Origin: Sneathiellaceae bacterium
GTDB taxonomy: Bacteria > Pseudomonadota > Alphaproteobacteria > Ferrovibrionales > Ferrovibrionaceae
DNA length: 64,000 nt
Direction of reading: 5' to 3'
Assembly (NCBI GenBank): GCA_040216765.1
Contig: JAVJON010000066.1
Location: 20,661-84,660 of the forward strand
The notes beneath the pieces are model-generated. The model made no database searches. It had not been told where the DNA came from and saw only the letters and a program-made list of their open reading frames with translations. This document shows, in pieces, positions 18,068-42,447 of the stretch (position 1 is its first letter; every line of letters starts with the position of its first letter). The position numbers were made by a program, and so were the translations under genes.

Positions 18068-18256
18068 CTCGGCCGCCTCTGTCAGACGCCGGTCGTCGAG
18101 GATCCAGGTGATCTCGCGATCGACCTGCGGCGGCTGCGGTTCCTCGACGATGAGCGGCCCACACGGGCCGCGCCCAAGCTGCTCGAAACTGCGTTGATGC
18201 GGGTGGTACCAGGTTGCGGGGAACGAACGCCGCGTCGGCGTGACCGAACCGGACAT
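18068..18256 (-). pseudogene. truncated multicopper oxidase remnant (paralog of the 33520-34953 gene)
   Basis: MSGSVTPTRRSF (Tat signal) is joined in-frame to WYHPHQRSFEQLGRG..IVEEPQPPQVDREITWILDD.RLTEAAE. 44 of 48 residues are identical to the intact MCO. The codons between the signal and WYHPH are missing, as is everything after TEAAE. Confidence 0.7.
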
Positions 18257-18395
18257 GCGACAGTTTTTCGGAAAGCCGTGGTCCGCAGTCGCCCGGCGAT
18301 GCACTGGGCATGCCTCAAGGAGCAACCGCACAGGCTGTCGAAACCGACATTGGTTCGGCGCAGGCGGAACCCGACCATCCGGGCGGATAGTAGCG

Positions 18396-18739
18396 TCAGG
18401 TCAGAAAGGCAGGTCCCGGTTGATGAGGTTCGAGCGACGTCGGGGCTCCTGCGAGCCATTTGGATCGGGCAGTAGAATGCCGCATCGGTCCTTGGGCGAC
18501 GGCCTGAGCCGCGTCGGCGATCACGCCCTGAACCGGAACAGTACAGTCGATGGTGCAACTCGGCGTTTGGCTGTCATCGTCCGCGGTCAGGCAGGAAACG
18601 CAGCCGGGCTTCGACATGGCGTCGACCGTAACGAAGCTAGCCGCTCGATGGCCCCTGCCATGTTTGTGGCATAGGCAGAGGCGGTCACCGAGACAAGGGT
18701 GACAACGATGCCAGCAAGAATGCCTGTCCCGCGTTTCAT
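18396..18739 (-). pseudogene. frameshifted copy of the small Cys-motif leader protein (paralog of 35094-35432)
   Basis: MKRGTGILAGIVVTLVSVTASAYA... is in one frame and ...SCTIDCTVPVQGVIADAA...WLAGAPTSLEPHQPGPAFLT in another. Together they align colinearly with the 112-aa protein at 35094-35432. Confidence 0.55.
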
Positions 18740-18916
18740 CGTGATTGGAGCCCAGCCTTGCGCCGCGATTGCGTCGAATGCCATTCGGCCAAACTGCTCC
18801 CGATTGTGAAGAAGGCGATCCTCGACCGCAGCCGGACCGTTGGCTGTCTGCTGCAAGAGACAGCCACAACAGCGACGCCCGTGCATCGGAAAAAATGAGG
18901 GCGAAGCGGCATGCAG

Positions 18917-19540
18917 TCAGGGAAGAGAAGAATCGGAGTTAAGAAGCTTAACCCCCTTCTCTCTCAAGGTTCCGTCAGGAGCAATGTAGCGGTACAGCGT
19001 CACGGTCGATATTCCAAGTTGTCGGCAAAATTCTGCGATATTTGCGTCGCGATCTCGCATGACGGCTTGGGCAATAATGAGGTGGCCTTTTGTCAGGACT
19101 GGCTTTCGTCCCTTCGACCGAAAGGATTCGGCCGGTCCGTATCGCATTAACTTCCACTCGCGCAACCGGTAGCGCTCGAACTCCGCAAGGGCTGCAATGA
19201 AGTTGAAGAACTGCGGGCCGCTTCCGGCCTGTGAGGTGTCGATTGACCCGCAATTTGCTTTGAGGACTCTGAGGTCCACTTGTCTGTCCGCCAGGCACTG
19301 GACGGTCCTGACGAGATGCGCCAGATCGCGGCCAAGCCGATCGAGACGCCAGACCACCAGCGTATCCCCCGCTTCGAGGGCATTCATGCAAGCCTCGAGT
19401 TGTGGGCGCGGGTCGCGTCGTGTCGTCGTCTGCTCTTCGAACAGGCGACTACCTGGCACCCCCGCAGCGGTCAAAGCATAGCGTTGCAGGTCGAGCAGTT
19501 CGCTGTCGTCGGACTTGGCCGTCCTGATATAACCGGTCAA
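18917..19540 (-). CDS. serine recombinase (resolvase/invertase family), divergent and possibly inactive
   Basis: Resolvase core GDTLVVWRLDRLGRDLAHLV, IDTS..G..FF.FIAALAEFER, and a C-terminal HTH (IAEFCRQLGISTVTLYRYI). The N-terminal motif is GYIRTAKSDD instead of GYARVST.DQ. A TTG at 19540 gives the canonical N-terminus; the track ORF extends to 19732. Confidence 0.7.
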   Translation of the reverse strand: MTGYIRTAKSDDSELLDLQRYALTAAGVPGSRLFEEQTTTRRDPRPQLEACMNALEAGDTLVVWRLDRLGRDLAHLVRTVQCLADRQVDLRVLKANCGSIDTSQAGSGPQFFNFIAALAEFERYRLREWKLMRYGPAESFRSKGRKPVLTKGHLIIAQAVMRDRDANIAEFCRQLGISTVTLYRYIAPDGTLREKGVKLLNSDSSLP

Positions 19541-19665
19541 CAGGCCAGTCCCCGCTTCCCCCTCCCAGGCAGAACCGTCACGTTCCTGGTGTTCCGGAAG
19601 CGATGTCGTCGCTGTATGCAATCGTTCGCTGAATTGCAGTCCACTACCGGGGCGGGGCTCGATCG

Positions 19666-20142
19666 TCACGGCTTTCCACCCCCGTGACCCTTGGCATGCC
19701 CAAGGGATTGTCGACGGCTTTTCAGGAACCATCGTTCCGCTGTGAACACGGCCAGGATGCCAGGGGCCGACAATCCGACGGGCATGCCAAACAACCGCTG
19801 CGCATAGGTCCCGAAGCTGCGCGCGACCAGGCTTTCGTTGATTACCATCGAGAATGCCATCAGCAATGCTCCCGCGCCGGCCGTTGTGCTACGGCCATAT
19901 GCCTTCTGGAGATACATGCCGATGCCGCCCGTCGAAGGGTGGGCATAGGACAGCTTCGCGCAGGAACAGGCGCTGAAGCCGCTGATCGCGGCCGCAAGAA
20001 CGAAGGCCGCCGGGAACCAGAGCCCGGCATAATCTGCGACCTGGCCAGTCGGAGCAAAGATCCCTGCGCCGATCATCACACCGGTGCCCAGGCCGATTGC
20101 ACCCGGAAACGAAAAGCTGCCCTTCTTGTAGTTTTCGGTCAT
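19666..20142 (-). pseudogene. 5' fragment of an APC-family amino-acid permease
   Basis: MTENYKKGSFSFPGAIGLGTGVMIGAGIFAPTG... matches only the first ~130 aa (about 3-4 TM helices) of a ~450-aa permease. It then runs into unrelated sequence next to the recombinase. Confidence 0.65.
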
Positions 20143-20270
20143 TCCCCTGCCCACTCGATCTTTGAGAGTGCTGCGCACCCGCCGCTGGTCGGACACCGGA
20201 CACCAGACACCGAATGCCGGCGCCAAGGCACCGGCATTCGGTTTTCCAGTCGCTATGGGCGCAGACGGCC

Positions 20271-21005
20271 TTAGAACAGCAGCCTGGTGCCGATAACCAG
20301 GAACAACTCGTCCACATCTGCGCCATCGGCCCGCCGGAAACTGGCGGTATCGCCAAACGCCCTCTCGTAGTGCACCCCGACATAGGGGCTGACGGCGCGG
20401 TCGATCAGGTCGTAGCTAAGACGCAGGCCAAGTTCCGCCGTGCTGAGACCGGCACCGACCTCGGCCTCGGTATCCTCCGAGAAGGCAAAGTCGATCTCCG
20501 CGGCGGGGGTGAGAATGATGCGGTTGGTAATCAGGAGCTCGTACTCGGCATCCAGGCGGGCCGAAACGTCCCCCTTCTCGCTGAGGAACAGGTCGGCATC
20601 GATCTCGAACCATTGCGGAGCCAACCCCTGGACACCCAGCACCCCGTAGAGCCGGTCATAGCCGCGTGGCATGTCGTAGCGGACACCTGCCTTGGCATCG
20701 AAAAATGTGGAGATCGGCGTTTGCAGCAGCAGCTGGTTCTCCAGCGTCTCAAAGGCACTGCTGTCCTTCTCGTACTCGCCCTTGCTCTGCAACCGCAGTT
20801 TCAAGTCGTCGGTCCCGGCAAGAGCGTCCCCATCCCAGGCATAGACGTCGGAGTTCCGTCCGATCCGATACTCCAGCTGCTCCACCGTGACGCCGTAGTA
20901 AAACAGCGGTTCCTTCTCCTGTGCGATGGCAGAATGACTCGTAGCGACCAAGCCAGTGCTGCCGAGGAGTCCGGCCGCAAGTGCCCTTAAATAGCGATTT
21001 TCCAT
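20271..21005 (-). CDS. copB: copper resistance protein B (outer-membrane CopB/PcoB)
   Basis: 244 aa with signal peptide and CopB-family beta-barrel sequence ending ...LFLVIGTRLLF. Starts 3 nt after the copA stop. Confidence 0.9.
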   Translation of the reverse strand: MENRYLRALAAGLLGSTGLVATSHSAIAQEKEPLFYYGVTVEQLEYRIGRNSDVYAWDGDALAGTDDLKLRLQSKGEYEKDSSAFETLENQLLLQTPISTFFDAKAGVRYDMPRGYDRLYGVLGVQGLAPQWFEIDADLFLSEKGDVSARLDAEYELLITNRIILTPAAEIDFAFSEDTEAEVGAGLSTAELGLRLSYDLIDRAVSPYVGVHYERAFGDTASFRRADGADVDELFLVIGTRLLF

Positions 21006-21008
21006 GCG

Positions 21009-23027
21009 TCAGCCCTCCGACCGCTGCGGCCCGGCGATCTGCACCGCCTTCTTTGGACCACCCTCGACAATCACCTTCCGGAACATGCCGCTGGCAGCGT
21101 GGTAGGACAGATGGCAATGGAATGCCCATTGGCCTGGAGCATCGACTTCGGTCTCCATGTACAGGGTGGTCCCGGGAGCAACGCTGACGACGTGCTTGAC
21201 CGGGTTCCATTGCCCAGCGCCAACATCCAAGATCGACCACATGCCATGCAGGTGCATCGGATGTGTCATCATCGTTTCATTGACGAACTTGAACCGGACG
21301 CGCTCGCCGTATTTCAGGCGGATCGGTTCTGCATCCTCATACTTGATGCCGTTGATGGACCAGGAATACCGCTCCATATTGCCAGTCAGACGCAGTTCGA
21401 TCTCTCGCGTCGGCGCGCGCTCCGGATAGAGCGGCCGGGCGGCACGCAGATCCGCATAGGATAGTACTTTCCCGCCATTTGCCGCTGATGGCAGCAATCC
21501 GCTGCCCTTGGCGTAGAATGGATCCTGGCCGGCACGTTCTGTCGTTCCAGCAGCGCCCTGCCTCATGGCGGCGGCATCCATTTTCGAATGGTCCATGCCC
21601 GCCGCCGGAGCGGCTTCCGCCTGGCTCATGCCACCCGTGCCGTGACCCATGGCGGCGTGGTCCATGCCCTGGGCGGGTGTGGAGTCCGCCTGGCTCATGC
21701 CACCCGTGCCGTGCCCCATGGCGGCATGGTCCATGCCCTGGGCTGGTGGAGAGTCCGCCCGGCTCATGCCACCCGTGCCATGCCCCATGGCGGCGTGGTC
21801 CATGCCCTGGGCGGGTGCGGGGTCCGCCTGGCTCGTGCCACCCGTGCCGTGACCCATGGCAGCGTGGTCCATGCCCGCCGCCGGAGCGGCTTCCGCCTGG
21901 CTCATGCCACCCGTGCCGTGACCCATGGCGGCGTGGTCCATCCCAGCCATACTGCCGTGATCCATGCCCATATCCGACATAGTCAGGAGCGAGGCAGGCC
22001 GCAGCTCCGGGACGTCTGCCACCATGCCTGGACGGGGAGCCAGGGTGCCGCGAGCAAAGCCCGATCGACCCATGGACTCCGCGAATATTGTGTAGGCTCG
22101 ATCCTCTTTCGGCTGAACGATCACGTCATAGGTTTCAGCGACCGCAATGCGCAACTCGTCAACCGTTACGGGTTTCACATCATTGCCGTCAGCTTGCACC
22201 ACCGTCATCTGCAACCCGGGGATTCGCAGATCGTAATAGGTCATCGCCGAGGAGTTGATGAAGCGCAGCCGGACTTTCTCACCAGGCTTGAAGATCCCGG
22301 TCCAGTTCTGTTCCGGCCCCTTGCCATTGATCAGGCCGGTGAAGCCCTGCAGGTCCTCGATATCGGTGGGCATCATGCGCATCTCGCCCCAGGCGGCGCG
22401 GTCCGCGAGTGTCGCGTCGAAGCCCTTCGACGCGACGTCGTCGAAGAAATCTCCCAGAGTGCGCTGCTTGCGATTGTAGTAGTCCGGCATCAGCTTCAAG
22501 TTCCGCATGATCCGGTCACCGGAGTGCGGGTGCTTGTCGGTCAGCTGGACGACATAGTCGCGATCGCTGGCAATCGCCTCACCGCTCTTCGGCGTGATGA
22601 CTATTGCTCCGAAGGCGCCATCGGGCTCCTGAAAGCCGGTATGGCTGTGGAACCAATAGGTTCCTGTCTGCCGGATCGGGAAGCGGTAGGTGAAGGTCTG
22701 TCCCGGCGCGATCCCGTCGAAGCTGATCTTCGGCACGCCATCCATCTGGAACGGCAGGATCAAGCCGTGCCAGTGGATCGAGGTGGATTCGTCGAGATTG
22801 TTGGTGACGTTGATAACCACATCTTCGCCCTCGGCAAAGCGAAGGACCGGGCCAGGCGAGGCCCCGTTATAGCCAATCCCAGTCTTGGTGAAATCGCCGG
22901 TGTCGATGGTGACACGGTCGACGCTGAGGTCGTAGGTGCCCGCCTGCAAGGTTGCGCTCTGCGCAAGGCCGAAACCAAGCGCCATGACGGTCAACGCGAG
23001 GCTGCTGCGTCCTGGTATCCAGTTCAT
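21009..23027 (-). CDS. copA: copper resistance multicopper oxidase CopA/PcoA with Met/His-rich repeat insert
   Basis: MCO copper ligand motifs (HWHG, WFHSH, HPMHLHG, HCHLSYHAASGM) plus an internal MDHAAMGHGTGGMSQ repeat array. Confidence 0.92.
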   Translation of the reverse strand: MNWIPGRSSLALTVMALGFGLAQSATLQAGTYDLSVDRVTIDTGDFTKTGIGYNGASPGPVLRFAEGEDVVINVTNNLDESTSIHWHGLILPFQMDGVPKISFDGIAPGQTFTYRFPIRQTGTYWFHSHTGFQEPDGAFGAIVITPKSGEAIASDRDYVVQLTDKHPHSGDRIMRNLKLMPDYYNRKQRTLGDFFDDVASKGFDATLADRAAWGEMRMMPTDIEDLQGFTGLINGKGPEQNWTGIFKPGEKVRLRFINSSAMTYYDLRIPGLQMTVVQADGNDVKPVTVDELRIAVAETYDVIVQPKEDRAYTIFAESMGRSGFARGTLAPRPGMVADVPELRPASLLTMSDMGMDHGSMAGMDHAAMGHGTGGMSQAEAAPAAGMDHAAMGHGTGGTSQADPAPAQGMDHAAMGHGTGGMSRADSPPAQGMDHAAMGHGTGGMSQADSTPAQGMDHAAMGHGTGGMSQAEAAPAAGMDHSKMDAAAMRQGAAGTTERAGQDPFYAKGSGLLPSAANGGKVLSYADLRAARPLYPERAPTREIELRLTGNMERYSWSINGIKYEDAEPIRLKYGERVRFKFVNETMMTHPMHLHGMWSILDVGAGQWNPVKHVVSVAPGTTLYMETEVDAPGQWAFHCHLSYHAASGMFRKVIVEGGPKKAVQIAGPQRSEG
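21591..21941. repeat. 5 tandem 69-bp (23-codon) coding repeats inside copA
   Basis: The anchor string GTCCATG recurs at 21591, 21660, 21729, 21798, 21867 and 21936 (period 69). Copies 1 and 5 are identical over all 69 nt. Confidence 0.9.
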
Positions 23028-23154
23028 ATCCTGCTCCTGTCACGCCCCAAACTCCGGGCAAGCCGGAGGTGGGCGCCGATCGATGCACTGCCGGAGGGCA
23101 GGTTCCCGGTGTCGCAGCTGAACGCCACGACACCGGGACCTGCGATGCCCTGTG

Positions 23155-23733
23155 CTATCGGATGTCGATGACGCCCTTCATTCCTGCCTCGTAGTGGCCG
23201 GGGACGTTGCAGGCGATTTCCACGGTGCCGGCGCTCGGAAAGGTCCAAACGACCTCGCCGCTCTGGCCCGGCTCCAACAGAACGCTGTTCGGATCCGAGT
23301 GACTCATCCCGTGGCCGCCCTTCATCTTGTCATGATTGATACGGTCGGCTTCGAGAACGCCATCGTTCACCATCGCCATCATCTCCTTCTGATGGGCGGC
23401 ATGCATTGCGGGGGTGCCGATATTGAACTCGTGCACCAATGTACCCTTGTTGGTGACAACGAAACGCACGGTCTCGCCGGCTTTCACATCCACCGCCGCA
23501 GGATCGTAGGAATTGTCGACGAGCACGATATCGACAGTCCTGTCCGCCTTGCTTGCCGCGGCAGCCTGCCCCATCAGACCGGTCGAGCCGGCTTGATGGG
23601 CATCACCATCATGGGAACCCGCGGCTTGCACTGGCGATCCGAAGGCAACGCCAAGTGTCAGGAGCGCCGCTGCCGCAGCGCCCCAGACCTGCTTGGTAAT
23701 AGAACTACGAACTCGATTGATCTTGGATTCCAT
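23155..23733 (-). CDS. periplasmic cupredoxin-fold copper-binding protein (plastocyanin/azurin-like)
   Basis: Signal peptide, His/Met-rich linker and a type-1 Cu C-terminal ligand pattern (...VEIACNVPGHYEAGMKGVI). Confidence 0.8.
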   Translation of the reverse strand: MESKINRVRSSITKQVWGAAAAALLTLGVAFGSPVQAAGSHDGDAHQAGSTGLMGQAAAASKADRTVDIVLVDNSYDPAAVDVKAGETVRFVVTNKGTLVHEFNIGTPAMHAAHQKEMMAMVNDGVLEADRINHDKMKGGHGMSHSDPNSVLLEPGQSGEVVWTFPSAGTVEIACNVPGHYEAGMKGVIDIR

Positions 23734-23983
23734 TTAATTCGTCCATCTCTCTCGCATAGCACCCTTCATGGGAAGTCGCCGGCAAGTGAGATTGCCGAGA
23801 CATCCGAATGTGTGGGGACCTGCTTTGAAGCCGTGACTTCGTCACATGACGGACCTACCGCAAGCGATCAGGCTCGCATGATGCGGTAGTCAAGTCATGG
23901 AGAAGTCGGGATTTGTTGCGCCCGTAAGAGCAACAATGGGACCGGTCCTCGTCGGCGTTTCGCGGACTCAGACTTGTGCAGGT

Positions 23984-24388
23984 TCAGGCGCTGACTCGAG
24001 GAGGGCGAAAGAGGCCATCGGAACCGCTCGGCGGCGGAGCGTCGCCTGGCCACCACGACCAATCGCGAAATGCAGTCCGGTGCTCACCAATCAAAGCACC
24101 AGGCAAAAGACCCGACAGGCAGCCAATGGCGCAGCACGACGCCGCATCATGGTCAACTTCGTGGTCATGCTGGCCGGAGTCATGATCGCCCATGGACTGA
24201 TCGTGCAGGTGGTACCCACCAGCAGCCGAAAATGGCACCAGATCGCACACTGCAGCTTGTGTCGGCACGTCCGGTCCAAATACGACCGGACCGGCAGCCT
24301 CGGCGGACGTCGACCAATACCCGATCAACAGCGCGAAAGCCGCGACAGCGAGGAAGAACTTCAACAAATGTGCAGGTACCGTCGCCAC
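23984..24388 (-). CDS. small exported His/Asp-rich CC-x3-C protein with Pro-rich tail (DUF2946-like, tentative), first gene of the cupredoxin-copAB operon
   Basis: A GTG at 24388 gives VATVPAHLLKFFLAVAAFALLIGYWSTSAEA (signal/anchor). Then HLHDQSMGDHDSGQHDHEVDHD, SCCAIGCLSGLLP and the tail ...GLFRPPRVSA. Paralog of 41376-42068. The start is uncertain because there is no in-frame ATG. Confidence 0.5.
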   Translation of the reverse strand: MATVPAHLLKFFLAVAAFALLIGYWSTSAEAAGPVVFGPDVPTQAAVCDLVPFSAAGGYHLHDQSMGDHDSGQHDHEVDHDAASCCAIGCLSGLLPGALIGEHRTAFRDWSWWPGDAPPPSGSDGLFRPPRVSA

Positions 24389-24665
24389 GACCAGTTCAGC
24401 TTTGTAGGTGACGAAGGCGTCCAATCTATCGGGCCGAGCAAGCCGAAGCAAGGCGTCGATAAGGGGGTTCACGCGGCTTTGAAGGGTTGTCGCCGAAGGC
24501 AGATCCAATCTACATCTCGACGGCAGCCTCTTCCGAACTCTTGCAACGTCGCTACCAAGTGGGCGCGGTTCAGGGTGGGCACTGCAGCCCGATCGAATGG
24601 ATACAGCCGATCTTGCCGATCCTTCGACATGGTGATAATGTATATAATACACAGATTCATCTTTA

Positions 24666-25046
24666 GTGAATATCGTGCGCTATCAAATCTACATTTTGAT
24701 TTGTATTGGTATCCTGGTCATCTTGGCACGGAGTGTCCCGGGCGTTTCCGTGGTCACTGCTACGGTTCTGCACAAGCGCCCCTTTGCTACTTCCGTAGAG
24801 ACGTCGACCTTCGCGTTTGTGCATTGTCGAAACGACGAATCCCCTCGACACGGGCATGAGCAGCCCTCCGACAATGGGGAAGGGCTGGCATTCTCCTGTG
24901 CTACGCCGCCATCTGTCGGGCTAACTACCGACCACCTGCAGGCATTCGTCATAGCCAGATCCGAGCGGCTGCGCCCTGACGTTACCAGAGATCCTGCCGG
25001 ACCGGACTTTGCTCCCCCGCGACGTCCTCCACGCACCTTCTGCTGA
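24666..25046 (+). CDS. small membrane-anchored Cys-motif/Pro-tail protein (same loose family), divergent from 23984-24388
   Basis: GTG start, then a TM helix (IYILICIGILVILA). LAFSCATPPSVGL resembles LACDFSCTVPAQGV of the 35094-35432 protein. The tail GPDFAPPRRPP resembles EPHPPRPS. Confidence 0.35.
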   Translation: MNIVRYQIYILICIGILVILARSVPGVSVVTATVLHKRPFATSVETSTFAFVHCRNDESPRHGHEQPSDNGEGLAFSCATPPSVGLTTDHLQAFVIARSERLRPDVTRDPAGPDFAPPRRPPRTFC

Positions 25047-25378
25047 AAGTTTCACGTCGGCGCCGTACGCAGCGCCGACGCCGGATACAGCAGGGTCGAG
25101 ATCTGCGCCCACATTGCTGCATCCGATTCCCGTCTGTAGGCCGCGCTGTCTGCCCCGGAATTCACCTGGGTGCCGGCGCTGCAACATCGGACGATGCCAT
25201 TCAGTGCCGCCAAAGCAAGGCCCGTCCCACGTGGGTAGCAAGCTCCGCTGAACATTCTACCGGTCGGAGCTTTCCTATGCCGCTTCGGATGCGGTCCTGC
25301 CGCCCTGTCGGCCGATCGACCAATACATGGTTTGGGATCGTTCGGAGGTGGCGCCACATCGAACAGGAATCCACGAAA

Positions 25379-25720
25379 ATGAAGATGCCGTTCTACGCCC
25401 ACGCGACGATGCGAAGCGCTCGTCTGTCAGGATTGGGATTGGCTGCTGGACTTGTCTTTCTTCTGGCTGTTCCCGCCGCCGGATTGGCACAGTCGAGGGA
25501 CCCGCACTGTTTCACCCAGATGCGGAACAGAATGCCCGTCGGACTGTTGCGACAGCAGCTGGATCAACAGGGCTGGCAAGTCCAGTCGATACGGCTCAAA
25601 TATGGCTGCTACGTTGTCCAGGCTCTGGATGCCAACGGTGAACAGGTCAGGGCCTATTTCGAGCCCCGCTTCCTGTGGCGCCGCGAAGTCGATGATGAGA
25701 AACAGACAGACAACGATTGA
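25379..25720 (+). CDS. small secreted PepSY-domain-like protein
   Basis: Signal peptide (MRSARLSGLGLAAGLVFLLAVPAAGLA), then LRQQLDQQGWQVQSIRLKYGCYVVQALDANGEQVRAYFEP, a PepSY-like pattern. The start among the nearby ATGs is uncertain. Confidence 0.5.
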   Translation: MKMPFYAHATMRSARLSGLGLAAGLVFLLAVPAAGLAQSRDPHCFTQMRNRMPVGLLRQQLDQQGWQVQSIRLKYGCYVVQALDANGEQVRAYFEPRFLWRREVDDEKQTDND

Positions 25721-25756
25721 GAGTTATAGAGTGCGTACCTAGGTAATGCAGTCGGG

Positions 25757-25784
25757 GCGGTTTCGCATTTTTTTTCGAAACCGC
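25757..25784 (+). terminator. 9-bp-stem hairpin with T-rich loop downstream of the PepSY gene
   Basis: GCGGTTTCG-CATTTTTTTT-CGAAACCGC read directly. The T run sits in the loop rather than after the stem, so it is not a textbook terminator. Confidence 0.3.
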
Positions 25785-25879
25785 TCCGACGAATACCGCA
25801 TTTCAGTCGATCCGGATCACTTTGATTGGGGTGCCGGGTCGTTCGGACAGAGTTCGACATCGGATATTTGGACCGCCTG

Positions 25880-26749
25880 CAGGTTCCGAGGCGCGATCAT
25901 CGCTTTTGCGCCTGTCATGCCGACCTCGCCAAGCGCGCCTGGCAAAAGATCGTTCTCCATCGTCAGCTGTCCGACCTTGGCGCCTTCGGCGGCTTTGTTC
26001 CGCTATTCCCATGACCGCAAGGGCAAGCATCCCCGCGCACATCTGGCCGGCTATGCTGGGATCCAGCAGGCAGATGCCTATGCCGGCTTCAACGAGCCCT
26101 CCAAACCGGAGCGGGCGCCGGGGCCGGTCCGGGAAGCCTGCTGCTGGGCGCATGCGCGGCAAAAATTCTTCAAACTGGCCGATATCAACCGCAAGGCAAA
26201 GGGTGGCAGGCCCGCTTCACCGCTGGCACTGGAGACAGTGCAGCGGTTCAATACCCTGTTCGACATCGAACGTGCCATCAACGGCCAAACGGCCGGGGAA
26301 CGGCCCAAGCCGCGCCAGGAGCAAGCGGCACCTCTGGTTGCCGAACTGCAGGCCTGGACGGGGGCCATCGCGGCCGGATGTCCCGTCACAGCAAGGCCGC
26401 AATGGCGATGGACTACATGCTGACCCGCTGGGCGGGGCTCAGCCGGATTCTCGAACACGGCCGGATCTGCCTGACCAACAATGTCGCCGAACGCGCATTG
26501 CGCGGCATCGCACCGGGTCGGAAGGCCCGGCTGTTCGCCGGCTCCGATCGCGGTGGCAAACGGGCCGCCTCCATGCACATCCTGATCGGCACAGCCAAGC
26601 TCAATGGTGTTGATCCACAAACCCGCCCACGCCGTGGCCGCCTGATCACCTACAGGACGGCGGTACTCACCGGAGGGTTCCGACTAAGCCAGGTGCACCA
26701 TCGCAACCTGGCAAAAGCGCTCGAAGAGCGTTGGCCCAGCCCCGACTGA
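25880..26749 (+). mobile_element. IS66-family transposase remnant (N-terminally truncated, at least one frameshift)
   Basis: FRYSHDRKGKHPRAHLAGYAGIQQADAYAGF...CWAHARQKFF in one frame. MSRHSKAAMAMDYMLTRWAGLSRILEHGRICLTNNVAERALRGIAPGRKARLFAGSDRGG...AKLNGVDPQ in another. No intact tnpA/tnpB and no clear IRs seen. Confidence 0.75.
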
Positions 26750-26791
26750 CCGGGCACAGAACGCCCCTCGCTTTCCCTGTCCGATTCCCAA

Positions 26792-27667
26792 TTATCCACG
26801 GCAACCATAGAAACCGCGATAGCCGACTCGAAGACCGGCGTCCAGTTCCAGCAGCAGATCGACTTCCTGCCGACCCGCCATCGGGTCCAACGCCGCTTCA
26901 CCCAAAGGCGGAGAAATACGCATTGCGATACCAATCGCCGCCAGTGTCAGTCCGTTCGCCGATCCAGCGGCATTGCCTGCATCGACTCGAACCAGGTCAC
27001 CGCTGAGCTTGACCAGTCCCGCTCCGTTTTCGCCGACGGCAAGAACCGGGGGGCTGTCCTCCGTATAGGTGAAGAAGCAGGCGGCGCCGTCGGGGAAGAG
27101 CCTGGCGACTTCGTCCGGCGTCATGAATTCCGGATCGAGAACTGCGACCTCGGCACTCGACAGCGCATCGGCCAGGGTTCCGACCTCTTTGGGCTCGCTT
27201 GCCCCGGATTCCGCGCCGTCGCCCGAGTCATCGATGCTGTCGATCAGATACCGCATCTCGGCGATTTCCTTGTCCTGCGCGAAGATGATTTCGTCAGCCA
27301 GCTTGCGCACCCGGGGGTCGGAAATATTCGCTCGGCTAGACGTCATGATGGCAATCGAATGATGCGGGATCATTGCACGCATGAAACTCGTGTCACCAAC
27401 GGTGACCTGGCTGCGGACCAGCCACAAGGATACACCGAAAGCCAGAAGGGCACCGGCAAAGATGGCGGCATTGAGCGTCTTGTTCGAATACATTGAGAGC
27501 ATGAACCCGAGCATGATCACCGCCATCGTCGCGCCCATGACCAAAGCCATGTAAAGACGGGTTTCCGAGAAAAAAACATGGGTCCACAAATATGTATTGA
27601 GGTACATCAATCCGAACATGACCACAGTGGACGTGAATATCATCGCGGCAAACCGGCCGTAAGCCAT
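26792..27667 (-). CDS. membrane DUF305-domain protein fused to an uncharacterised C-terminal domain
   Basis: 3-4 TM helices, then a DUF305-like half-domain (MIPHHSIAIMTS...DPRVRKLADEIIFAQDKEIAEM), then ~140 aa of unrecognised sequence. Start at the ATG at 27667. Confidence 0.7.
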   Translation of the reverse strand: MAYGRFAAMIFTSTVVMFGLMYLNTYLWTHVFFSETRLYMALVMGATMAVIMLGFMLSMYSNKTLNAAIFAGALLAFGVSLWLVRSQVTVGDTSFMRAMIPHHSIAIMTSSRANISDPRVRKLADEIIFAQDKEIAEMRYLIDSIDDSGDGAESGASEPKEVGTLADALSSAEVAVLDPEFMTPDEVARLFPDGAACFFTYTEDSPPVLAVGENGAGLVKLSGDLVRVDAGNAAGSANGLTLAAIGIAMRISPPLGEAALDPMAGRQEVDLLLELDAGLRVGYRGFYGCRG

Positions 27668-28166
27668 TCTGCCGCTCCCGTTTTTTGGTTCTTCGCTGTG
27701 GTTTGTCACGCCGTACCGACCTTTCACTTGACGCATTCGTATTACGTCATCAGATAACGCGCGTGCGCGACTTCCGGTTCCATAGCAGCGTTCAGCGGTC
27801 CTGGGGCCCCCACGATCCATCGACCGTCGAGTTTTTTGCCACGGGCCGTCGCGCATTCTCCCCCATACATGCATGTCCACAAAGACAGTGGGCTACGCGA
27901 CGACAGAAGACGTCGGAGGACCTCCACCGCACAGGGGCGTCACCACCCATTACACAGAAAACCTGCAACTCAAAAATAATATTGTTTAACCATATTGTTA
28001 TTAAACTGGCGCGATCGCATCATTCTTGCCCTATTTACTGCAGACATTTATTTGCGTATTATGGTTGCATCGACTGGCATCTGACCGGTGCATTGTTTCC
28101 GTCTCTCTCGCTATTCCCCCCTTCTGTGTAGTGGGACGGTTTCAGTAAGACGACGGGCCTCACCTC

Positions 28167-28808
28167 ATGAAAATATCCGACAGTTTCTCTGGTGCCGCTC
28201 TGTCTTTGGTGCAACGCAGGCGCAAAGTGGCGCTTCTTTTCATTGTCTTCGGAACCGTGTCTTGGGCTTTTCTTAACGATCACCATTTTCCAGGACGCAC
28301 TTATGAGCAAATCACCGGGACTGTTGGCATAGTTTTAATTGGAGTATGTGTTCTGGGTCGCGTCTGGTGCTCCTGGTTCATATCCGGAAGAAAGAAAAAG
28401 GAACTGGTTCAAGAAGGACCTTTTTCTATGTCAAGAAATCCATTGTATATGTTCTCTATCATCGGCGCATCCGGAGCGGGATTAACAGCCGGAAGTATTG
28501 TTCTGACTATATTAATCTTTTCAAGCGTTCTATTTGTATTCAACTCAGTTGTGACTCATGAAGAGAATTTTCTTTTAAATCAATTTGGCGATAAATATAT
28601 TTTATACTGCGCCACCGTCCCGAGATGGGGTATTCGTATGTCCAGTTTTTCTTTCTATGTAGAATATTTCACCAACAAACCAAATGGTAAATTGTTTTTG
28701 ATCTCGATCAGAGATTCATCTCTATTTCTCCTTTGTATTCCCCTATTCCGGGCCATCGATGAAGTCACGCACACCGGATTTTTTCGCCCTGTTTTCGCCC
28801 TGTATTAG
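28167..28808 (+). CDS. ICMT/PEMT-family membrane methyltransferase (CzcN/NccN-like)
   Basis: Multi-TM protein with the family motif ...LVQEGPFSMSRNPLYMF... Strikingly AT-rich codon usage compared with every neighbour. Confidence 0.7.
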   Translation: MKISDSFSGAALSLVQRRRKVALLFIVFGTVSWAFLNDHHFPGRTYEQITGTVGIVLIGVCVLGRVWCSWFISGRKKKELVQEGPFSMSRNPLYMFSIIGASGAGLTAGSIVLTILIFSSVLFVFNSVVTHEENFLLNQFGDKYILYCATVPRWGIRMSSFSFYVEYFTNKPNGKLFLISIRDSSLFLLCIPLFRAIDEVTHTGFFRPVFALY

Positions 28809-29036
28809 ACCCTGTGCCTAGAGCATGATCACCTGGGCCGGCAACATACCGTGAGTTACAGCATAACGTGAGTTGATGAGGTAGTTGTTGGTGGGAGTTG
28901 ATCCGGCAGCGTTCCGATGCACCATCAGAGTGCCTCGCGGTCGCGTTCCTGGACAGTCTCAGCAGATATCTGAGCTTGGCGAACAGCTGTTCGAATGGGT
29001 GTTCAGCCCCGGCATGTGGTAGATCCGAACTCCCGA

Positions 29037-33052: not shown

Positions 33053-33493
33053 CTACTCCGTGGCATAGACCCGAGGCGTTTCGGCACCGATCTCGTAGAT
33101 CGTGAACGGTTCCGACTTCCTGCCGCCCATGCCGGGCGAGCCCGACGGCATGCCGGGCAAGGTCACGCCCTTGATGTCCGGCCTCTCGTCGAGGAGGCGG
33201 CGCACCGCCGCGATCGGGACATGACCGCTGACCGCATAGCCGTCGACGAACGCCAGGTGGCAGCCCTGGAAATCGTCGGGGATTCCCGCCTTCCGGCTCA
33301 TCACGACCAGATCGTGGGTTGGCTTGACGTCGACGGCGAAGCCGTTCTCCCGCAGGTAGTCGGCATAGTTCTCGCAGCAATCGCATTGCGGGTTCTTGTA
33401 GAGCGTGGCGCTTTCCTTCGGCTCGGCAGCGAGGAGCGGCGCCGAAATGGCAATACCGAGCCCGAAGGCGGCGATGGTCAGGAGCTTTCTCAT
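33053..33493 (-). CDS. copG: CopG-like DUF411 periplasmic copper-binding protein
   Basis: Signal peptide, CDCC motif (NPQCDCCENYADYL) and the conserved C-terminus GVTLPGMPSGSPGMGG. Start at the ATG at 33493. Confidence 0.85.
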   Translation of the reverse strand: MRKLLTIAAFGLGIAISAPLLAAEPKESATLYKNPQCDCCENYADYLRENGFAVDVKPTHDLVVMSRKAGIPDDFQGCHLAFVDGYAVSGHVPIAAVRRLLDERPDIKGVTLPGMPSGSPGMGGRKSEPFTIYEIGAETPRVYATE

Positions 33494-33519
33494 GAAATCA
33501 GTCCTTGTTGAGGGAAAGG

Positions 33520-34953
33520 TCAGGCGACGCGGATGACGCCCATCATCCCGGCCGCCTGGTGCTCGAGGATGTGGCAATGGAACATCCAGTCGCCCGGATT
33601 GTCGGCGACGAAGGCAATCTCGACCCGCTCCCGCGGGGCCATCAGGACGGTGTCCTGCCATTCGCGCCGGGCCGTCGGGGTGCCGTTTCGCGAGATCACC
33701 CGGAACGAATGGCCGTGCAGGTGGATCGGGTGAGGCCAGGCGGTCGCGTTCGTCATCGCGATCACATGCGATCCGTCGCGCCGCAATGTCAGGAACGGCT
33801 CCAGCACATGGCCATCGGCGGCCACACCGTTGACGAACCACATGCCGCCTGAGCGCATCATGTTCATCATCGAGCCCATCTGGCCGCCCATCTCCTGCAT
33901 GACCATCTGGCCCATCATCCCGCCGTTGAAGGTCACAGCGTGCCGTTCGGCATTGCCCAGGTCCGGTTCGGGCAGAGGATTGGGCGCCAGGGCGACCGCG
34001 CCTTCCGCCCGCGCCTCCCTGACCGGCTTGCCGTCATAGACGAACGCGGTCAGACGGTAGGCAAGACGCGGATAGAAGCGGTCGACAAGGTCGATCCGGT
34101 CGCCGGCGGTCCCGGTCATGTCGATGATCAGATCGGCCCGCATTGCCGGGCCGAGGACGACCAGGCCGTCCTGCGGTTCGTGCGAGGTGACCGGCTGCCC
34201 ATCCAGCGCGATGACCTGCGGCCGTAGCGCTGCGAAATCGAGACCGAAGATCCGCGCGTTGGCGGCATTGATCAGGCGCAGACGGATGCGCTCGCCCGGC
34301 CGTACCGACAATGGTTCCGGCATGCTGCCGTTGATGGTCAGGACGTTCCCGAACCTGCCGCCATGGCTCATGTCGTGACGGTTGCCGAAATCGTCACTGA
34401 TCTCGGCCGCCTCTGTCAGACGCCAGTCGTCGAGGATCCAGGTGATCTCGCGATCGACCTGCGGCGGCTGCGGTTCCTCGACGATGAGCGGACCATAAAG
34501 GCCGCGCCCAACCTGCTCGAAACTGCGCTGATGCGGGTGGTACCAGAACGTCCCGGCATCGACCGCGTCGAACTCATAGACGAAGCCCTCGCCCGGCCCG
34601 ATCGGCCGCTGCGTGAGATGCGGCACCCCGTCCATCGCGTTCGGGATCCGAAGGCCGTGCCAATGCACCGTAGTGTCTTCGGCAAGCCCGTTCTCGACAT
34701 GGATGCGGAGGCGCTGGCCCTGCCGGACCCTGATTTCCGGGCCGGGCAGACGATCGTTGAAACACCAGACTGCCGTCTTGCCGTAGGGCTGCGCAACCAG
34801 CTGGGCGGAGCCTTTCCCGGCACGCAACCGGACCTCCTGTACTGGCGCCGCCCCGGCCTGCGCGAGGCCTGGCAATGGCAGTAGAAGACCGGTAACTGCT
34901 GCTGCAGAGGACGCGAGGAACGAACGCCGCGTCGGCGTGATCGGACCGGACAT
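33520..34953 (-). CDS. Tat-exported three-domain multicopper oxidase
   Basis: Twin-arginine signal (TPTRRSFLASSAAAV) and Cu-ligand motifs HWHG, WYHPH, HPIHLHGH, HCHILEHQAAGMM. Confidence 0.9.
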   Translation of the reverse strand: MSGPITPTRRSFLASSAAAVTGLLLPLPGLAQAGAAPVQEVRLRAGKGSAQLVAQPYGKTAVWCFNDRLPGPEIRVRQGQRLRIHVENGLAEDTTVHWHGLRIPNAMDGVPHLTQRPIGPGEGFVYEFDAVDAGTFWYHPHQRSFEQVGRGLYGPLIVEEPQPPQVDREITWILDDWRLTEAAEISDDFGNRHDMSHGGRFGNVLTINGSMPEPLSVRPGERIRLRLINAANARIFGLDFAALRPQVIALDGQPVTSHEPQDGLVVLGPAMRADLIIDMTGTAGDRIDLVDRFYPRLAYRLTAFVYDGKPVREARAEGAVALAPNPLPEPDLGNAERHAVTFNGGMMGQMVMQEMGGQMGSMMNMMRSGGMWFVNGVAADGHVLEPFLTLRRDGSHVIAMTNATAWPHPIHLHGHSFRVISRNGTPTARREWQDTVLMAPRERVEIAFVADNPGDWMFHCHILEHQAAGMMGVIRVA

Positions 34954-35093
34954 GAGAGACTCTTCCTGGAAGCCGTGGTCCGCAGTCGCCCGGCGCTGCC
35001 CTGGGCATGCCTAGGGAGGCAACTGCACATGCCGCCGAGATCGATGCCTTCTCGGGGCCGAATGGAACACCGCCACCCGAATGGATCGCGGCG

Positions 35094-35432
35094 TCAGCTC
35101 AGGAAGGAAGGTCTCGGTGGATGCGGTTCGGGCGCCGTGGGAGCGCCGGTCAGCCAAAGGAAGCGGGCAGCGAAATGCCGCATCGGGGCTTGGGCAAAGG
35201 GCGTGGCCATATCGGCCATCACGCCCTGCGCCGGGACCGTGCAACTGAAGTCGCAGGCAAGCCTGTCGCCGTCTTCCCCGCTCGCGCAAGCGTCGCAACC
35301 GCTCATCGAAACGGCATCGGCGGGGGCACAATTGTCTCCGGAGCCGCTCGCCATCGTCGTGGCTTCGGCGGATGCCGTCACCAGGAACAGGGCGACTACG
35401 ACACTGGCGACTATGCTAAGAACGCGCTTCAT
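35094..35432 (-). CDS. small exported C-x3-C / Pro-tail protein (DUF2946-like, tentative), first gene of the MCO-copG-redox operon
   Basis: 112 aa: signal peptide MKRVLSIVASVVVALFLVTASA, an Asp/Cys-rich middle (SGCDACASGEDGDRLACDFSCTVPAQG) and the tail FLWLTGAPTAPEPHPPRPSFLS. Confidence 0.6.
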   Translation of the reverse strand: MKRVLSIVASVVVALFLVTASAEATTMASGSGDNCAPADAVSMSGCDACASGEDGDRLACDFSCTVPAQGVMADMATPFAQAPMRHFAARFLWLTGAPTAPEPHPPRPSFLS

Positions 35433-35681: not shown

Positions 35682-35758
35682 CGGAGTGTAGCTCAGCCTG
35701 GTAGAGCACTGTCTTCGGGAGGCAGGGGCCGGTGGTTCGAATCCACTCACTCCGACCA
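35682..35758 (+). tRNA. tRNA-Pro (anticodon CGG)
   Basis: Manual cloverleaf. Acceptor CGGAGTG/CACTCCG. D-arm GCTCAGCCTGGTAGAGC. Anticodon stem CTGTC/GGCAG with loop TTCGGGA (CGG). T-arm GGTGG-TTCGAAT-CCACT. Discriminator A and encoded CCA. Confidence 0.9.
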
Positions 35759-37307: not shown

Positions 37308-37386
37308 CGGGGTCCGCGTCCGCACCGGCTCCATCCCGCCAGGAGCCGACCCGCCGCGGCGACTTTCACGCCGATGCTCAGGGTAG

Positions 37387-37418
37387 TTGACTCCGTACTA
37401 TGGTACGGCCTCTAGCAT
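37387..37418 (+). promoter_or_regulatory. mer-type promoter/operator: -35 TTGACT, 19-20 bp spacer holding the dyad CCGTAC-N4-GTACGG, -10-like TAGCAT
   Basis: TTGACTCCGTACTATGGTACGGCCTCTAGCAT read directly. The Tn501/Tn21 merOP, as I recall it, is TTGACTCCGTACATGAGTACGGAAGTAAGGT. GGAGG lies at 37424-37428 and the ATG at 37436. Confidence 0.65.
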
Positions 37419-37435
37419 GCCCTGGAGGCCATGAC

Positions 37436-38104
37436 ATGAAACGCACAACCATCGGTCGCGCAGCAGCATTGACCCGGGTCAATGTAGAGACCATCCGCTT
37501 CTATGAACGACGCGGCCTGATCGCGCAGCCGCCGCGCCCCACCGATGGCGGGTCGCGGGACTATGGCCGGGAGGTCATCGACCGGATCCTGTTCATCCGC
37601 CAGGCACAGGATATCGGTTTCTCGCTGCGCGAGGTTGCGGACCTGCTGGCGCTGCGCAACGAACCCGGCGCCGATTGCGCGGAGATCCGCGTGCGCACCC
37701 AGGCCAAACGCGACGAGGTCCAGGCCAAACTCGGGCATCTGACGCGGTTGCGCGATGCGCTGGACCTGTTGATCGCCAACTGCCCGGGCAAAGGTGCGCT
37801 CGACGCCTGCACAATCCTGGAAGCCATGGCACACCGGTCTGGAACCTCCGCGAAACATCGGGAACAGAGCATGGAAACCACGACCCTGAAGATCGAGGGC
37901 ATGCATTGCCATGCCTGCGCCCGGACGGTCCAGGCGGTGCTGCAGCGGGCGACAGGTGTGCTTCGGGCGGAGGCGTCGTTCGACAAGCGACAAGCCCGGA
38001 TCCTGCACGATCCGCAGAAAGCCGGCGCGGCGGAGCTGGCGGCCCTGATCGAGAACTGCGGCTACGCGGTCGAGATTCTTCCACCCCAGGCCAATGCACC
38101 GTGA
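37436..38104 (+). CDS. merR: MerR-family metalloregulator (Hg-type Cys triad) fused to a C-terminal HMA (MerP/CopZ-like) domain
   Basis: [18 protein letters not shown] (MerR has [15 protein letters not shown]). Cys81, Cys116 and Cys125 have the same spacing as MerR Cys82/117/126. From aa 146 the sequence [18 protein letters not shown]... is an HMA fold. Confidence 0.85.
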
Positions 38105-41375: not shown

Positions 41376-42068
41376 GTGACCTCATCCTTCGACCGTGTTC
41401 GGACACTGTTCCTGGCCTGTAGCGCAGTCTTGCTGCTGCTGGTTTATTGGGCGGCGCCGGCCAATGCCATGGTCGATGGCCGGCATGCCGTGCACATGAC
41501 ACTCTCGACGGCGGCCATGACCTGCCACCCCGACAATGCGGCCACAGCTGACAATCATCCCGCGGGCGACCCTGCCGAAGAAGGCGCGGCCGCAGCGGAC
41601 CAGGACGGGGATCATCACGGCGGCGGCGCACACCGGGACACAGGCTCCTGCTGCGCGGTCGGCTGCCTCTCCGGTCTCCTGCCCGCCGCCCCGACCGAAG
41701 CGCAGCGGGCAGCCGCCTCCGCGACTGGTCGCGATGGCCCGACAGGCATCCGCCGCGGGCCGGCTTCGCTTCCCCTTATCGCCCTCCTCGCGCCGAGTCT
41801 GAGCCGACGCCGGCCTGAGTCCGCCCTCCGCGGGCACAGGTCGGCCGGGAGTACGGCGCTATCGGCGCCGAAAAGCCCGCCGCCGCTTTCGCCTTGGCGA
41901 CCATCCCGCGGCCGTTCTGGCCGTAAGGCGGGATTCCGCCTGGCAGCGAAGTCGCACCTGGAAGCCCGGCTCCAGCACAGGATCACGGCGGCTTGCCGAA
42001 TGCCGGCACCCTCCGTGACAGGCGCTACTGCGCGTATCTGCGCGACAATGGATGGATCGACCCGATGA
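41376..42068 (+). CDS. small exported His-rich CC-x3-C protein (paralog of 23984-24388); the 3' extent is probably artefactual
   Basis: GTG start; MTSSFDRVRTLFLACSAVLLLLVYWAAPANA; DGDHHGGGAHRD; SCCAVGCLSGLLP. The homolog ends ~50 aa after this motif, whereas this ORF runs on for ~130 aa of low-complexity sequence. Confidence 0.4.
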   Translation: MTSSFDRVRTLFLACSAVLLLLVYWAAPANAMVDGRHAVHMTLSTAAMTCHPDNAATADNHPAGDPAEEGAAAADQDGDHHGGGAHRDTGSCCAVGCLSGLLPAAPTEAQRAAASATGRDGPTGIRRGPASLPLIALLAPSLSRRRPESALRGHRSAGSTALSAPKSPPPLSPWRPSRGRSGRKAGFRLAAKSHLEARLQHRITAACRMPAPSVTGATARICATMDGSTR

Positions 42069-42100
42069 AGATCAGAACCGAGCGAGATCGCTTTTCGACA

Positions 42101-42280
42101 ATGAAGCTGGCCTGTAGCGGCGCAATGGCGTGCGCGATGCTGGCCCTGACAATGGGAGCCCCGCAGGCCGCTGGAGGGCATGGCGGCGGGGCCGACCACG
42201 ACATGCCCGCCGGACTGACGGGGCAGGCGGCCGACGTGGCCGATGCCGACCGGACGGTGGAAATCGATCTGGCGGCCATG
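42101..42280 (+). pseudogene. 5' fragment of a cupredoxin gene (paralog of 23155-23733)
   Basis: MKLACSGAMACAMLALTMGAPQAAGGHGGGADHDMPAGLTGQAADVADADRTVEIDL parallels ...VQAAGSHDGDAHQAGSTGLMGQAAAASKADRTVDIVL. Homology then stops. Confidence 0.5.
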
Positions 42281-42447
42281 TGCCGGTCGCGACGGTCCGC
42301 CGGCTGCTCGACGAAAGGCCGGGCATCGCGGGCGTGACCTTGCCCGGCATGCCGAACGGATCGCCGGGCATGGGCGGACGCAGGTCGGCCCCGTTCCAGA
42401 TCTACGAAATCGGTCCCGCCCCCATGCGGATCTATGCTGTCGAGTGA
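42274..42447 (+). pseudogene. 3' fragment of a copG/DUF411 gene
   Basis: GHVPVATVRRLLDERPGIAGVTLPGMPNGSPGMGGRRSAPFQIYEIGPAPMRIYAVE matches the last 57 aa of the intact DUF411 protein at 33053-33493. It is in a different frame from the cupredoxin fragment. Confidence 0.65.

Follow-up and report, generated by a model that had tools for sequence, protein, structure and literature searches.

The 64,000-nucleotide (nt) stretch of Sneathiellaceae DNA analyzed here, referred to below as the window, encodes two intact small proteins, A (23984–24424, minus strand) and C (35094–35432, minus strand), each of which heads a set of copper-resistance genes. We conclude, with a probability of about 80%, that A and C act in cis as copper-sensing leader peptides and belong to the class that includes CutF, CopL, and CruR, that two broken copies in the same window, E (41376–41818, plus strand) and D (18396–18869, minus strand), belonged to this class before their breakage, and that a further open reading frame (ORF), B (24666–25046, plus strand), possibly does as well. 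This conclusion is carried by the anatomy of the ORFs, the conservation of their motifs and spacing, their genomic position, the either/or relationship between leaders and the CopRS two-component system, a covarying pairing between leader tails and downstream ribosome-binding sites (RBS), and a codon bias. A sequence-only reading of this DNA had listed the five ORFs, all of which are present, and had proposed that they are DUF2946-like, copper-responsive leaders. The core of this idea stands for A and C and for the broken E and D, supported by two comparative surveys and by the published class, while B is unverified. Among described proteins, C is nearest to CutF and A to CopL, and neither is nearest to DUF2946 proper.

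Leader A corresponds to NCBI protein P0001, with a TTG start at 24424 (146 aa); a GTG start at 24388 gives 134 aa. It is comprised of a hydrophobic N-terminal helix ending in AEA, a stretch of His and Asp residues, a Cys cluster (S-CC-AIG-C-LSG), and a tail ending in RPPRVSA, and its C-terminal part reads ...SCCAIGCLSGLLP...WSWWPGDAPPP...LFRPPRVSA. The putative Cu-binding motif is encoded by TGC TGC GCC ATT GGC TGC (24119–24136, minus strand; C97-C98-A-I-G-C102), and this C97-C98-x3-C102 pattern is invariant in alignment A1. The RPPR arrest-type motif (CGC CCU CCU CGA; 23996–24007, minus strand) lies three codons before the stop, and these codons also form the anti-Shine-Dalgarno strand for the cupredoxin RBS downstream. 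An exhaustive HMMER search with A over 1.8 billion representative proteins recovered two true relatives, P0003 and P0004, each directly upstream of a cupredoxin homolog; the three proteins share the pattern SCCA[IV]GC[LV]S.LLP...W...[FY]RPPR. A word-indexed protein search with A returned a near-identical copy only, and a tblastn search of plasmids with A gave no match.

Leader C (112 aa) has a putative signal peptide of the classical type, the motifs C46xxC49 (CDAC) and C60xxxC64 (35241–35255, within CDFSC-TVP), and the tail PEPHPPRPSFLS, in which PPR (35112–35120) lies five codons before the stop. Its C-terminal part reads ...CDFSCTVPAQG...WLTGAPTAPEPHPPRPSFLS. As for A, the word-indexed protein search with C returned a near-identical copy only.

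The two broken ORFs are copies of these leaders. E, the resident A-type leader, resembles A (blastp, 1e-13), and its RPPR codons are at 41780–41791 (plus strand). A 2-nt insertion near 41714 disrupts its frame, as seen by comparison with L004, a 98%-identical relative whose E-type gene is intact and encodes the 128-aa P0003; the insertion may be an assembly error. D is a frameshifted copy of C (blastp, 1e-26). These are the only significant pairwise similarities among the five ORFs, and the single family that had been proposed therefore resolves into two pairs. The common build attributed to all five (an export helix, a His-rich or acidic stretch, C-x3-C, and PP[R] near the stop) is found in A, C, D, and E, and B lacks the C-x3-C. 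When A-type and C-type profiles were compared directly, they matched over the C-terminal 25 columns only (hhalign probability 95%, E = 4e-8); the A-type profile gave short terminal matches only with B and with C, and with one CopL sequence it matched the signal peptide only.

Published rules for CutF-like proteins call for fewer than 150–170 aa, no Pfam domain, a signal peptide, C-x3-C, and PP within the last 15 residues (PMC8456105, PMC9973294); the corresponding survey, which found DUF2946 to be the closest Pfam model, selected ORFs of <150 aa that carry a signal peptide, have PP among their final 15 residues, and are followed within 1000 nt by a gene on the same strand (PMC9973294). A (134–146 aa), B (126 aa), and C (112 aa) are all of this size, with no Pfam family above threshold, and each has a hydrophobic helix (mean Kyte-Doolittle value of at least 2.6) in its first 45 residues. 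An AxA-type site follows in A (SAEA|A) and C (SAEA|T), and B resembles an uncleaved anchor. The central C-x3-C occurs in A (C98-x3-C102), C (C60-x3-C64), D, and E; at the corresponding position, B has one Cys only. PP occurs within the last 15 residues of A (RPPRVSA), B (RPPRTFC), and C (HPPRPSFLS). Each is followed by a gene on the same strand: the cupredoxin gene begins 250 nt beyond A, the PepSY gene 332 nt beyond B, and the oxidase gene 140 nt beyond C. Shielding of the downstream Shine-Dalgarno sequence, as in the CutF mechanism, is predicted for A, for C, and for both of their families, and not for B. Among the 276 six-frame ORFs of 80–160 aa in the window, an N-terminal helix combined with [RH]PP in the last 12 residues occurs only in A, B, and C (∼0.2 expected).

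The genomic position of A-type leaders was surveyed using the cupredoxin as anchor in 185,579 species genomes, which gave 80 loci. A leader is encoded directly upstream of the cupredoxin, on the same strand, at 32 of these, as compared with 2/248, 1/133, and 2/228 in controls. Only one Cys column (C97 of A) and one PP column are invariant in the alignment of the 32 leaders (A3); the Cys-to-PP spacing is 39–48 residues (median 45), and the tails fall into the subtypes RPPR/K, ETPPPR, and DPPVPR. The 80 cupredoxin-copA loci divide sharply by regulator: 31 have a leader only, 40 have CopR only, one has both, and eight have neither, several of the latter being on truncated contigs. Where present, the CopR/CopS pair is divergent and ∼200–350 nt upstream. 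A plasmid of Hydrocarboniclastica carries the CopRS version. Leaders occur mostly in Alphaproteobacteria, and CopRS mostly in Marinobacter and its relatives. This either/or pattern suggests that the leader does the job of the regulator.

For C-type leaders, the oxidase served as anchor in metagenomes, where 70 loci were assessable. An ORF with a helix and a PP tail lies directly upstream of the oxidase on the same strand at 62 of the 70 (0 of 181 ORFs in the opposite-strand control), with a median leader-oxidase spacer of 136 nt. C49, C60, C64, and PP are invariant in the 61-member alignment (A6), and C itself shares all the columns that are invariant among the 60 leaders recovered from in front of oxidase homologs. 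Cys and PP are separated by 40 residues in 39/60 and by 42 in 16/60; the spacing in C is 40. A genome-neighborhood check had been suggested alongside the sequence-only reading, and these two surveys strongly support the leader assignment.

The second line of evidence concerns the RNA. In the minimum-energy fold, the RPPR codons of A pair with the cupredoxin RBS, ...GCGAGAGAGAUGGACGAA (23734–23764), and an anti-Shine-Dalgarno segment in the last codons of C, CUUCCUG (35100–35106, minus strand), pairs with CAGGAAG (34962–34968), which immediately precedes the oxidase start codon. Pairing of the Shine-Dalgarno region with the last 48 nt of the leader has a probability of 0.67 in A and 0.78 in C; 0 of 20 shuffles reach the value for C. 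Across the families, the mean pairing probability is 0.35 vs. 0.18 with shuffled tails for A-type (34 loci) and 0.54 vs. 0.24 for C-type (60 loci), where the observed value is reached by at most one of 20 shuffles at 32 of the 60 loci. Matched tail/RBS duplexes are ∼3.5 kcal/mol better than those mismatched with other loci (p = 0.0002 in both families, unchanged under G+C-stratified permutation). Leader A ranks its own RBS first of 32, and its own tail is likewise first of 32; the corresponding ranks for C are 2/61 and 1/61. Compensating changes are evident in alignment A5, in which CAUCUGAU/AUCAGAUG is found vs. CAUUUGAU/AUCAAAUG, with further pairs in CCAUCCUGAG/CUCAGGAUGG and CGUCCUGA/UCAGGACG.

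Synonymous codons in the arrest motif are also used unevenly. The first Pro of the terminal PP is encoded by CCU in 19/32 leaders vs. 13% background (p = 2e-9), and the Arg that follows PP is CGA or AGA in 12/18 vs. 19% background (p = 2e-5). These codons are rare, and they give CCUCC-like anti-Shine-Dalgarno strings. The bias fits selection for a CCUCC-type segment, slow decoding, or both.

The 250-nt spacer between A and the cupredoxin (23734–23983, minus strand) is structured (fold z = −2.8), with its last ∼31 nt (23734–23764) containing the RBS that pairs with the A tail; a conserved block immediately precedes the cupredoxin start codon in three relatives. The hairpin (23913–23936) and the GTGAC-N3-GTCAC dyad (23833–23845) that had been singled out in this spacer both exist. 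Their proposed role as an attenuator found no specific support: they are part of a spacer that folds well as a whole, and the three-sequence alignment of the A-cupredoxin spacer is too divergent to test them for covariation. The element with comparative support is instead the long-range pairing between the last codons of the leader and the downstream RBS.

Taken with what has been established for CutF, these features suggest how A and C may work. The leader would be translated and exported co-translationally via its N-terminal signal or anchor helix. Its Cys/His motif is set at a fixed 38–46 residues before the putative PP[R/K] arrest motif, itself 1–9 codons before the stop, such that the metal-binding motif would have just emerged from the ribosome when the ribosome reaches PP. 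Copper bound to the emerging motif would lengthen the pause at this position, and the paused ribosome would cover the last codons of the leader, which otherwise would be paired to the Shine-Dalgarno region of the next gene. The predicted targets are cupredoxin-copAB for A and the CutO-like oxidase and CutG for C. Since the pause would cover the leader tail, the RBS would be freed, and copper would turn on the translation of the resistance genes, a task that the CopRS two-component system would perform in many relatives.

Several observations weigh against this reading. That the peptides bind copper, are exported, and stall the ribosome is predicted here by analogy with CutF, as is the direction in which they would regulate. 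The spacers are long, at 250 nt (A) and 140 nt (C), and the authors of the CutF work anticipated that melting driven by stalling would operate only over short spacers (PMC9973294). The duplex energies of A (p = 0.10) and C (p = 0.43) are not significant against random windows of their own locus, since DNA rich in G+C readily forms duplexes by chance; the shuffled-tail pairing probabilities and the matched/mismatched permutations were used in place of this test, and the support is accordingly at the level of the family. Third-position G+C gives only a weak indication of coding (A 0.63, B 0.60, C 0.73, vs. 0.71–0.82 in neighboring genes). The exhaustive HMMER search yielded only two relatives of A, and B has no Cys pair, no homolog, no NCBI call, and no RBS pairing.

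Furthermore, none of the five ORFs passes a curated hidden Markov model (HMM) threshold in Pfam or NCBIfam. For DUF2946 (PF11162; gathering threshold 23.7 bits), whose members the sequence-only reading had found similar in architecture, A through E have no match at E ≤ 10, and the full-length hits of relatives are sub-threshold (P0003, 13.7 bits, E = 0.11). At E ≤ 0.1, this model matches 8/32 A-type and 2/61 C-type leaders, with a best E-value of 0.0021. The motifs found here are CC-x3-C and RPPR with 38 residues between them in A, C-x3-C and PPR with 40 between them in C, and a single Cys with RPPR in B, none of which follows the DUF2946 pattern. The NCBIfam CopL_fam model (NF033807; curated cut-off 40 bits) has no match to A, scores E at 8.1 bits, and matches P0003 over its full length at 19.6 bits (E = 0.0011), while a genuine CopL scores 107 bits; at E ≤ 0.1 it matches 6/32 A-type leaders (best 4e-5). 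Weak matches to a third model, Pfam DUF6153 (PF19650), were observed for 4/32 A-type and 12/61 C-type leaders (best E = 0.00057), and this family could represent a further branch, already named, of a common leader-peptide superfamily.

Candidate B is the member of the set for which an alternative explanation has the most to recommend it. Its 126 residues include a predicted anchor helix, a His-rich and acidic stretch, Cys78, and RPPR (CGU CCU CCA CGC; 25023–25034, plus strand) three codons before the stop, and its tail reads ...PPRRPPRTFC. Its two Cys residues, at positions 54 and 78, are single, and neither C-x3-C nor CC-x3-C is present. The balance tips slightly toward B being a genuine leader; the competing view, which we hold to be somewhat short of even odds, is that B is a chance ORF in which an A+T-rich promoter region supplies a hydrophobic start and G+C-rich DNA a Pro/Arg-rich end. 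A chance origin is consistent with the lack of any homolog in a word-indexed search of 5.8 billion proteins (in which B itself was also not found), the lack of a tblastn match in plasmids, and the fact that NCBI leaves B uncalled in three assemblies. The GTG start lacks an obvious Shine-Dalgarno sequence, the third-position G+C is 0.60, and the only polymorphism seen in B is non-synonymous (P81T). In addition to the missing C-x3-C, pairing between its tail and the PepSY RBS is absent (−8.9 kcal/mol, below the mismatched mean; P = 0.01), and one spurious RPPR-ended ORF was found among ∼2100 control ORFs.

Features that chance would be less apt to produce speak for B. A helix with an [RH]PP tail occurs in only three ORFs of the window, with ∼0.08 further expected by chance; its RPPR is exactly three codons from the stop, as in A; the distance from Cys78 to the second Pro is 44 residues vs. 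a family median of 45; and CCU encodes its first Pro, a choice shared by 59% of leaders vs. 13% background. An hhalign comparison places its Cys and PPR in the register of the C-type family (P = 0.002, not significant). B is also on the same strand as, and upstream of, the PepSY gene, whose plasmid homologs adjoin a divergent two-component system; these homologs have two-component systems upstream instead of leaders. With PepSY as anchor, no relatives were recovered from the genome and metagenome collections. Divergent leader pairs do occur elsewhere: in two Rhodospirillales metagenome-assembled genomes (MAGs), a CutF-type and an A-type leader are divergent and 70 nt apart (L075:2103–2925 and L076:2102–2924), so head-to-head leaders are not unique to this window. 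No inverted repeats were found between A and B, and a promoter and terminator scan of 23600–25450 gave no promoter-like hit and a single terminator-like one, which lies within A and is no more than chance would yield. A G+C-rich hairpin with a perfect 8-bp stem (GTCGGCGC...GCGCCGAC; 25056–25079, plus strand) begins 10 nt past the B stop, with no U run after it; should B be genuine, this hairpin might serve in pausing or processing.

These results can be drawn together in a single model that we offer tentatively, as we judge it to be on the doubtful side of even. Arrest site and riboregulator would be a single element: the arrest codons, together with the few that follow them, would themselves be the anti-Shine-Dalgarno strand of a long-range helix that closes a structured 50–250-nt spacer onto the next RBS. 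A ribosome held by copper would directly unmask this RBS, the switch would have repeatedly replaced CopRS ahead of one and the same cupredoxin-copAB module, and B would be an orphan third type. As part of this equally tentative model, B would control PepSY by another route, e.g., the hairpin after its stop.

The same RNA evidence bears on whether control by A and C might be transcriptional, as for CruR. Here, a ribosome at PP would block Rho loading on a C-rich spacer, and its release would lead to termination. Long spacers (250, 140, and 332 nt) would suit such control, CruR acts in this way across a 162-nt spacer (PMC9426467), and a C-rich, G-poor stretch follows just after the hairpin at 23913–23936 in the A spacer, as read by eye. 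However, the comparative signal sits at the Shine-Dalgarno region, which points to translational control, and no Rho-loading site has been demonstrated. We therefore consider Rho-based control in place of translational control unlikely, although the two modes are not mutually exclusive.

Least probable, by a small further step, is that these small proteins are stable, non-regulatory periplasmic copper chaperones or membrane-anchored copper binders that pass copper to the cupredoxin or oxidase: such a role was first discussed for CutF in 2021 (PMC8456105) and would accord with the putative signal peptides, the Cys/His motifs resembling those of copper chaperones, and the co-encoded cuproproteins, but CutF is undetectable in vivo and acts in cis only (PMC9973294), the mean column identity of the leaders is just 18–28% with nearly free variation outside the Cys and PP columns, and a structural chaperone would predict neither the fixed Cys-PP distance and closeness of PP to the stop, nor the synonymous-codon bias at the arrest codons, nor the covariation of the last leader codons with the next RBS, nor the replacement of leader and CopRS by one another.

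The gene contexts given in the sequence-only reading hold in Pfam searches. Leader A precedes cupredoxin (23155–23733), copA multicopper oxidase (21009–23027), and copB (20271–21005), all on the minus strand, and the unit thought to be regulated by A spans 20271–23733. Within copA (21589–21948, minus strand), nucleotide self-matches revealed several tandem copies of a 69-nt unit (∼86–88% identity). Met/His-rich repeats are known in CopA/PcoA proteins and would be the usual explanation for such an array. On the opposite strand, B precedes a PepSY_2 gene (25379–25720, plus strand), which begins 332 nt after the B stop and is followed by IS66 fragments.

Leader C precedes a CutO-like multicopper oxidase (33520–34953, minus strand) and a DUF411 (CopG/CutG) gene (33053–33493, minus strand), and together these form a cutFOG-type operon. 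The unit thought to be regulated by C spans 33053–34953 (minus strand), and the thiol-redox genes beyond DUF411 continue to 29037, where they end with a DsbD-like gene in resident DNA to the right of the island described below. A tRNA-Pro(CGG) gene (35682–35758, plus strand), the sole tRNA in the window and the only match in an Rfam scan, lies 250 nt upstream of C and is divergent from it; its location beside a Pro-Pro leader is probably a coincidence or an integration hotspot, and a link to stalling at Pro seems less likely. To the right of the C operon are a MerR+HMA regulator, a P-type ATPase, and a second DsbD-like gene, followed by E. Downstream of E, a cupredoxin fragment (residues 1–69; 42065–42271, plus strand) is fused after residue 69 to a DUF411 fragment (42274–42444, plus strand) that represents the C-terminal third of the gene. 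The resident copAB unit, which is intact in L004, has been lost in the window and is functionally replaced by the island copy.

This island is the segment 18069–29021, which is missing from the 2.76-Mb contig of L004; its absence there marks it as a 10.95-kb insertion, and its G+C content is lower. It is a mobile copper-resistance island, located between the DsbD-like gene and a phosphorylase gene, and by Pfam it contains a resolvase, copB, copA, cupredoxin, A, B, PepSY_2, IS66 fragments, DUF305, and a methyltransferase. Its left end is comprised of D and a 145-nt oxidase fragment (18068–18211). The window as a whole is 100% identical to contig JAVJWA010000124, assigned to an Algiphilus sp. 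MAG.

No regulator was found within the 18069–29021 island, where the sequence-only reading had seen no CopRS, CueR, or CsoR, and no two-component regulator or OmpR-type response regulator was detected by Pfam across the window. The statement that a leader heads every copper operon proved too broad: the P-type ATPase unit has its own MerR+HMA regulator (∼37400–38104), outside the island, and its own MerR-type promoter (37381–37412, plus strand; TTGACT, a 20-nt spacer, and TAGCAT) preceding the regulator and ATPase genes. A perfect dyad in this promoter, CCGTAC-N4-GTACGG (37393–37408), occurs nowhere else in the window, and by this criterion the leader-headed operons are outside of the MerR regulon.

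A, C, D, and E add new members to the published CutF/CopL/CruR class; they fall within the rule-based CutF-like definition and outside of the HMM definitions, and they bear hallmarks of the CutF mechanism. A single region harbors two intact leaders, one of each subtype, along with two broken copies and what may be a third leader, placed before different copper modules, which shows the breadth of nascent-peptide metal sensing and indicates that leaders travel with mobile copper-resistance islands. The either/or relationship between leader and CopRS, the covariation of tail and RBS over long spacers, and the bias toward CCU and CGA/AGA go somewhat beyond the cited papers. Short, fast-evolving leader ORFs are missed or left unnamed by annotation, and given the lack of HMM matches and the few relatives found, copper regulons that seem to have no regulator may often be leader-controlled.

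Among known systems, SecM and MifM/VemP resemble the proposed leaders in general design: an exported nascent peptide has a C-terminal, Pro-containing arrest motif, and stalling remodels the mRNA and exposes a downstream RBS. They differ in that they sense translocation activity and not metal, and they have no sequence relation to the leaders described here.

Bordetella pertussis CruR (bp2923, DUF2946), the product of an upstream ORF, acts through Rho to control a TonB-dependent transporter and a PepSY_TM gene, and has CXXC and RAPP motifs 45 residues apart (PMC9426467). Like CruR and other DUF2946 proteins, which are exported, A and C are upstream ORFs whose products are predicted to be exported; common to both groups are a Cys motif and a C-terminal R-x-PP held at a constant separation, with the latter three residues before the stop, and a position at the head of copper-related operons, where PepSY-type partners are frequent. 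Of the Pfam models, DUF2946 comes closest, with weak matches to 8/32 A-type leaders. The motifs are distinct, as C-x3-C or CC-x3-C is combined here with RPPR or PPR at a separation of 38–40 residues. The predicted direction of control also differs: copper relieves CruR stalling, and the uptake operon is turned off by Rho termination, whereas the genes downstream of A and C are resistance genes, which copper should turn on.

For the A family, the closest likeness is to CopL of the Xanthomonas/Stenotrophomonas copLAB operons (NF033807), which has been placed in the same set as CutF (PMC9973294). Both are encoded by the first gene of a copA-copB unit and have an N-terminal helix, a His-rich stretch, and a CC...C-x3-C cluster; the last Cys is 37 residues from PP in Xanthomonas CopL and 38 in A, and the tail [LF][IF]RPP[IR] occurs at the very end of both (LIRPPIG in Xanthomonas CopL, LFRPPRVSA in A). 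The A family differs in scoring below the model cut-off (P0003, 19.6 vs. 40 bits, with A itself unmatched) and in having a cupredoxin gene between the leader and copA.

For C, the closest described relative is Rhodobacter capsulatus CutF, a 118-aa protein with a Sec signal, C69xxxC73, and the tail PEPEGPPPRL, encoded by the first gene of cutFOG ahead of the oxidase CutO and then CutG; CutF acts only in cis, and a stem-loop shields the cutO Shine-Dalgarno sequence (PMC8456105, PMC9973294, bioRxiv 10.1101/2025.02.05.636593). Two differences are evident: C has an extra CxxC, and in C and its 60 relatives the anti-Shine-Dalgarno is kept within the last codons of the leader and pairs across a structured spacer of ∼136 nt, as compared with the short intergenic stem-loop of CutF. 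Judged against the published description of CutF, C is otherwise alike in length (112 vs. 118 aa), in its putative Sec-type signal peptide and its C-x3-C, in the 40 residues from the second Cys to the first Pro of PP(P)R (C73 to P114 in CutF), in its tail (PEPHPPR vs. PEPEGPPPR), in its location directly upstream of a CutO-type oxidase and then DUF411/CutG, and in an anti-Shine-Dalgarno (CUUCCUG; CTTC in CutF) that is predicted to shield the RBS of the oxidase.

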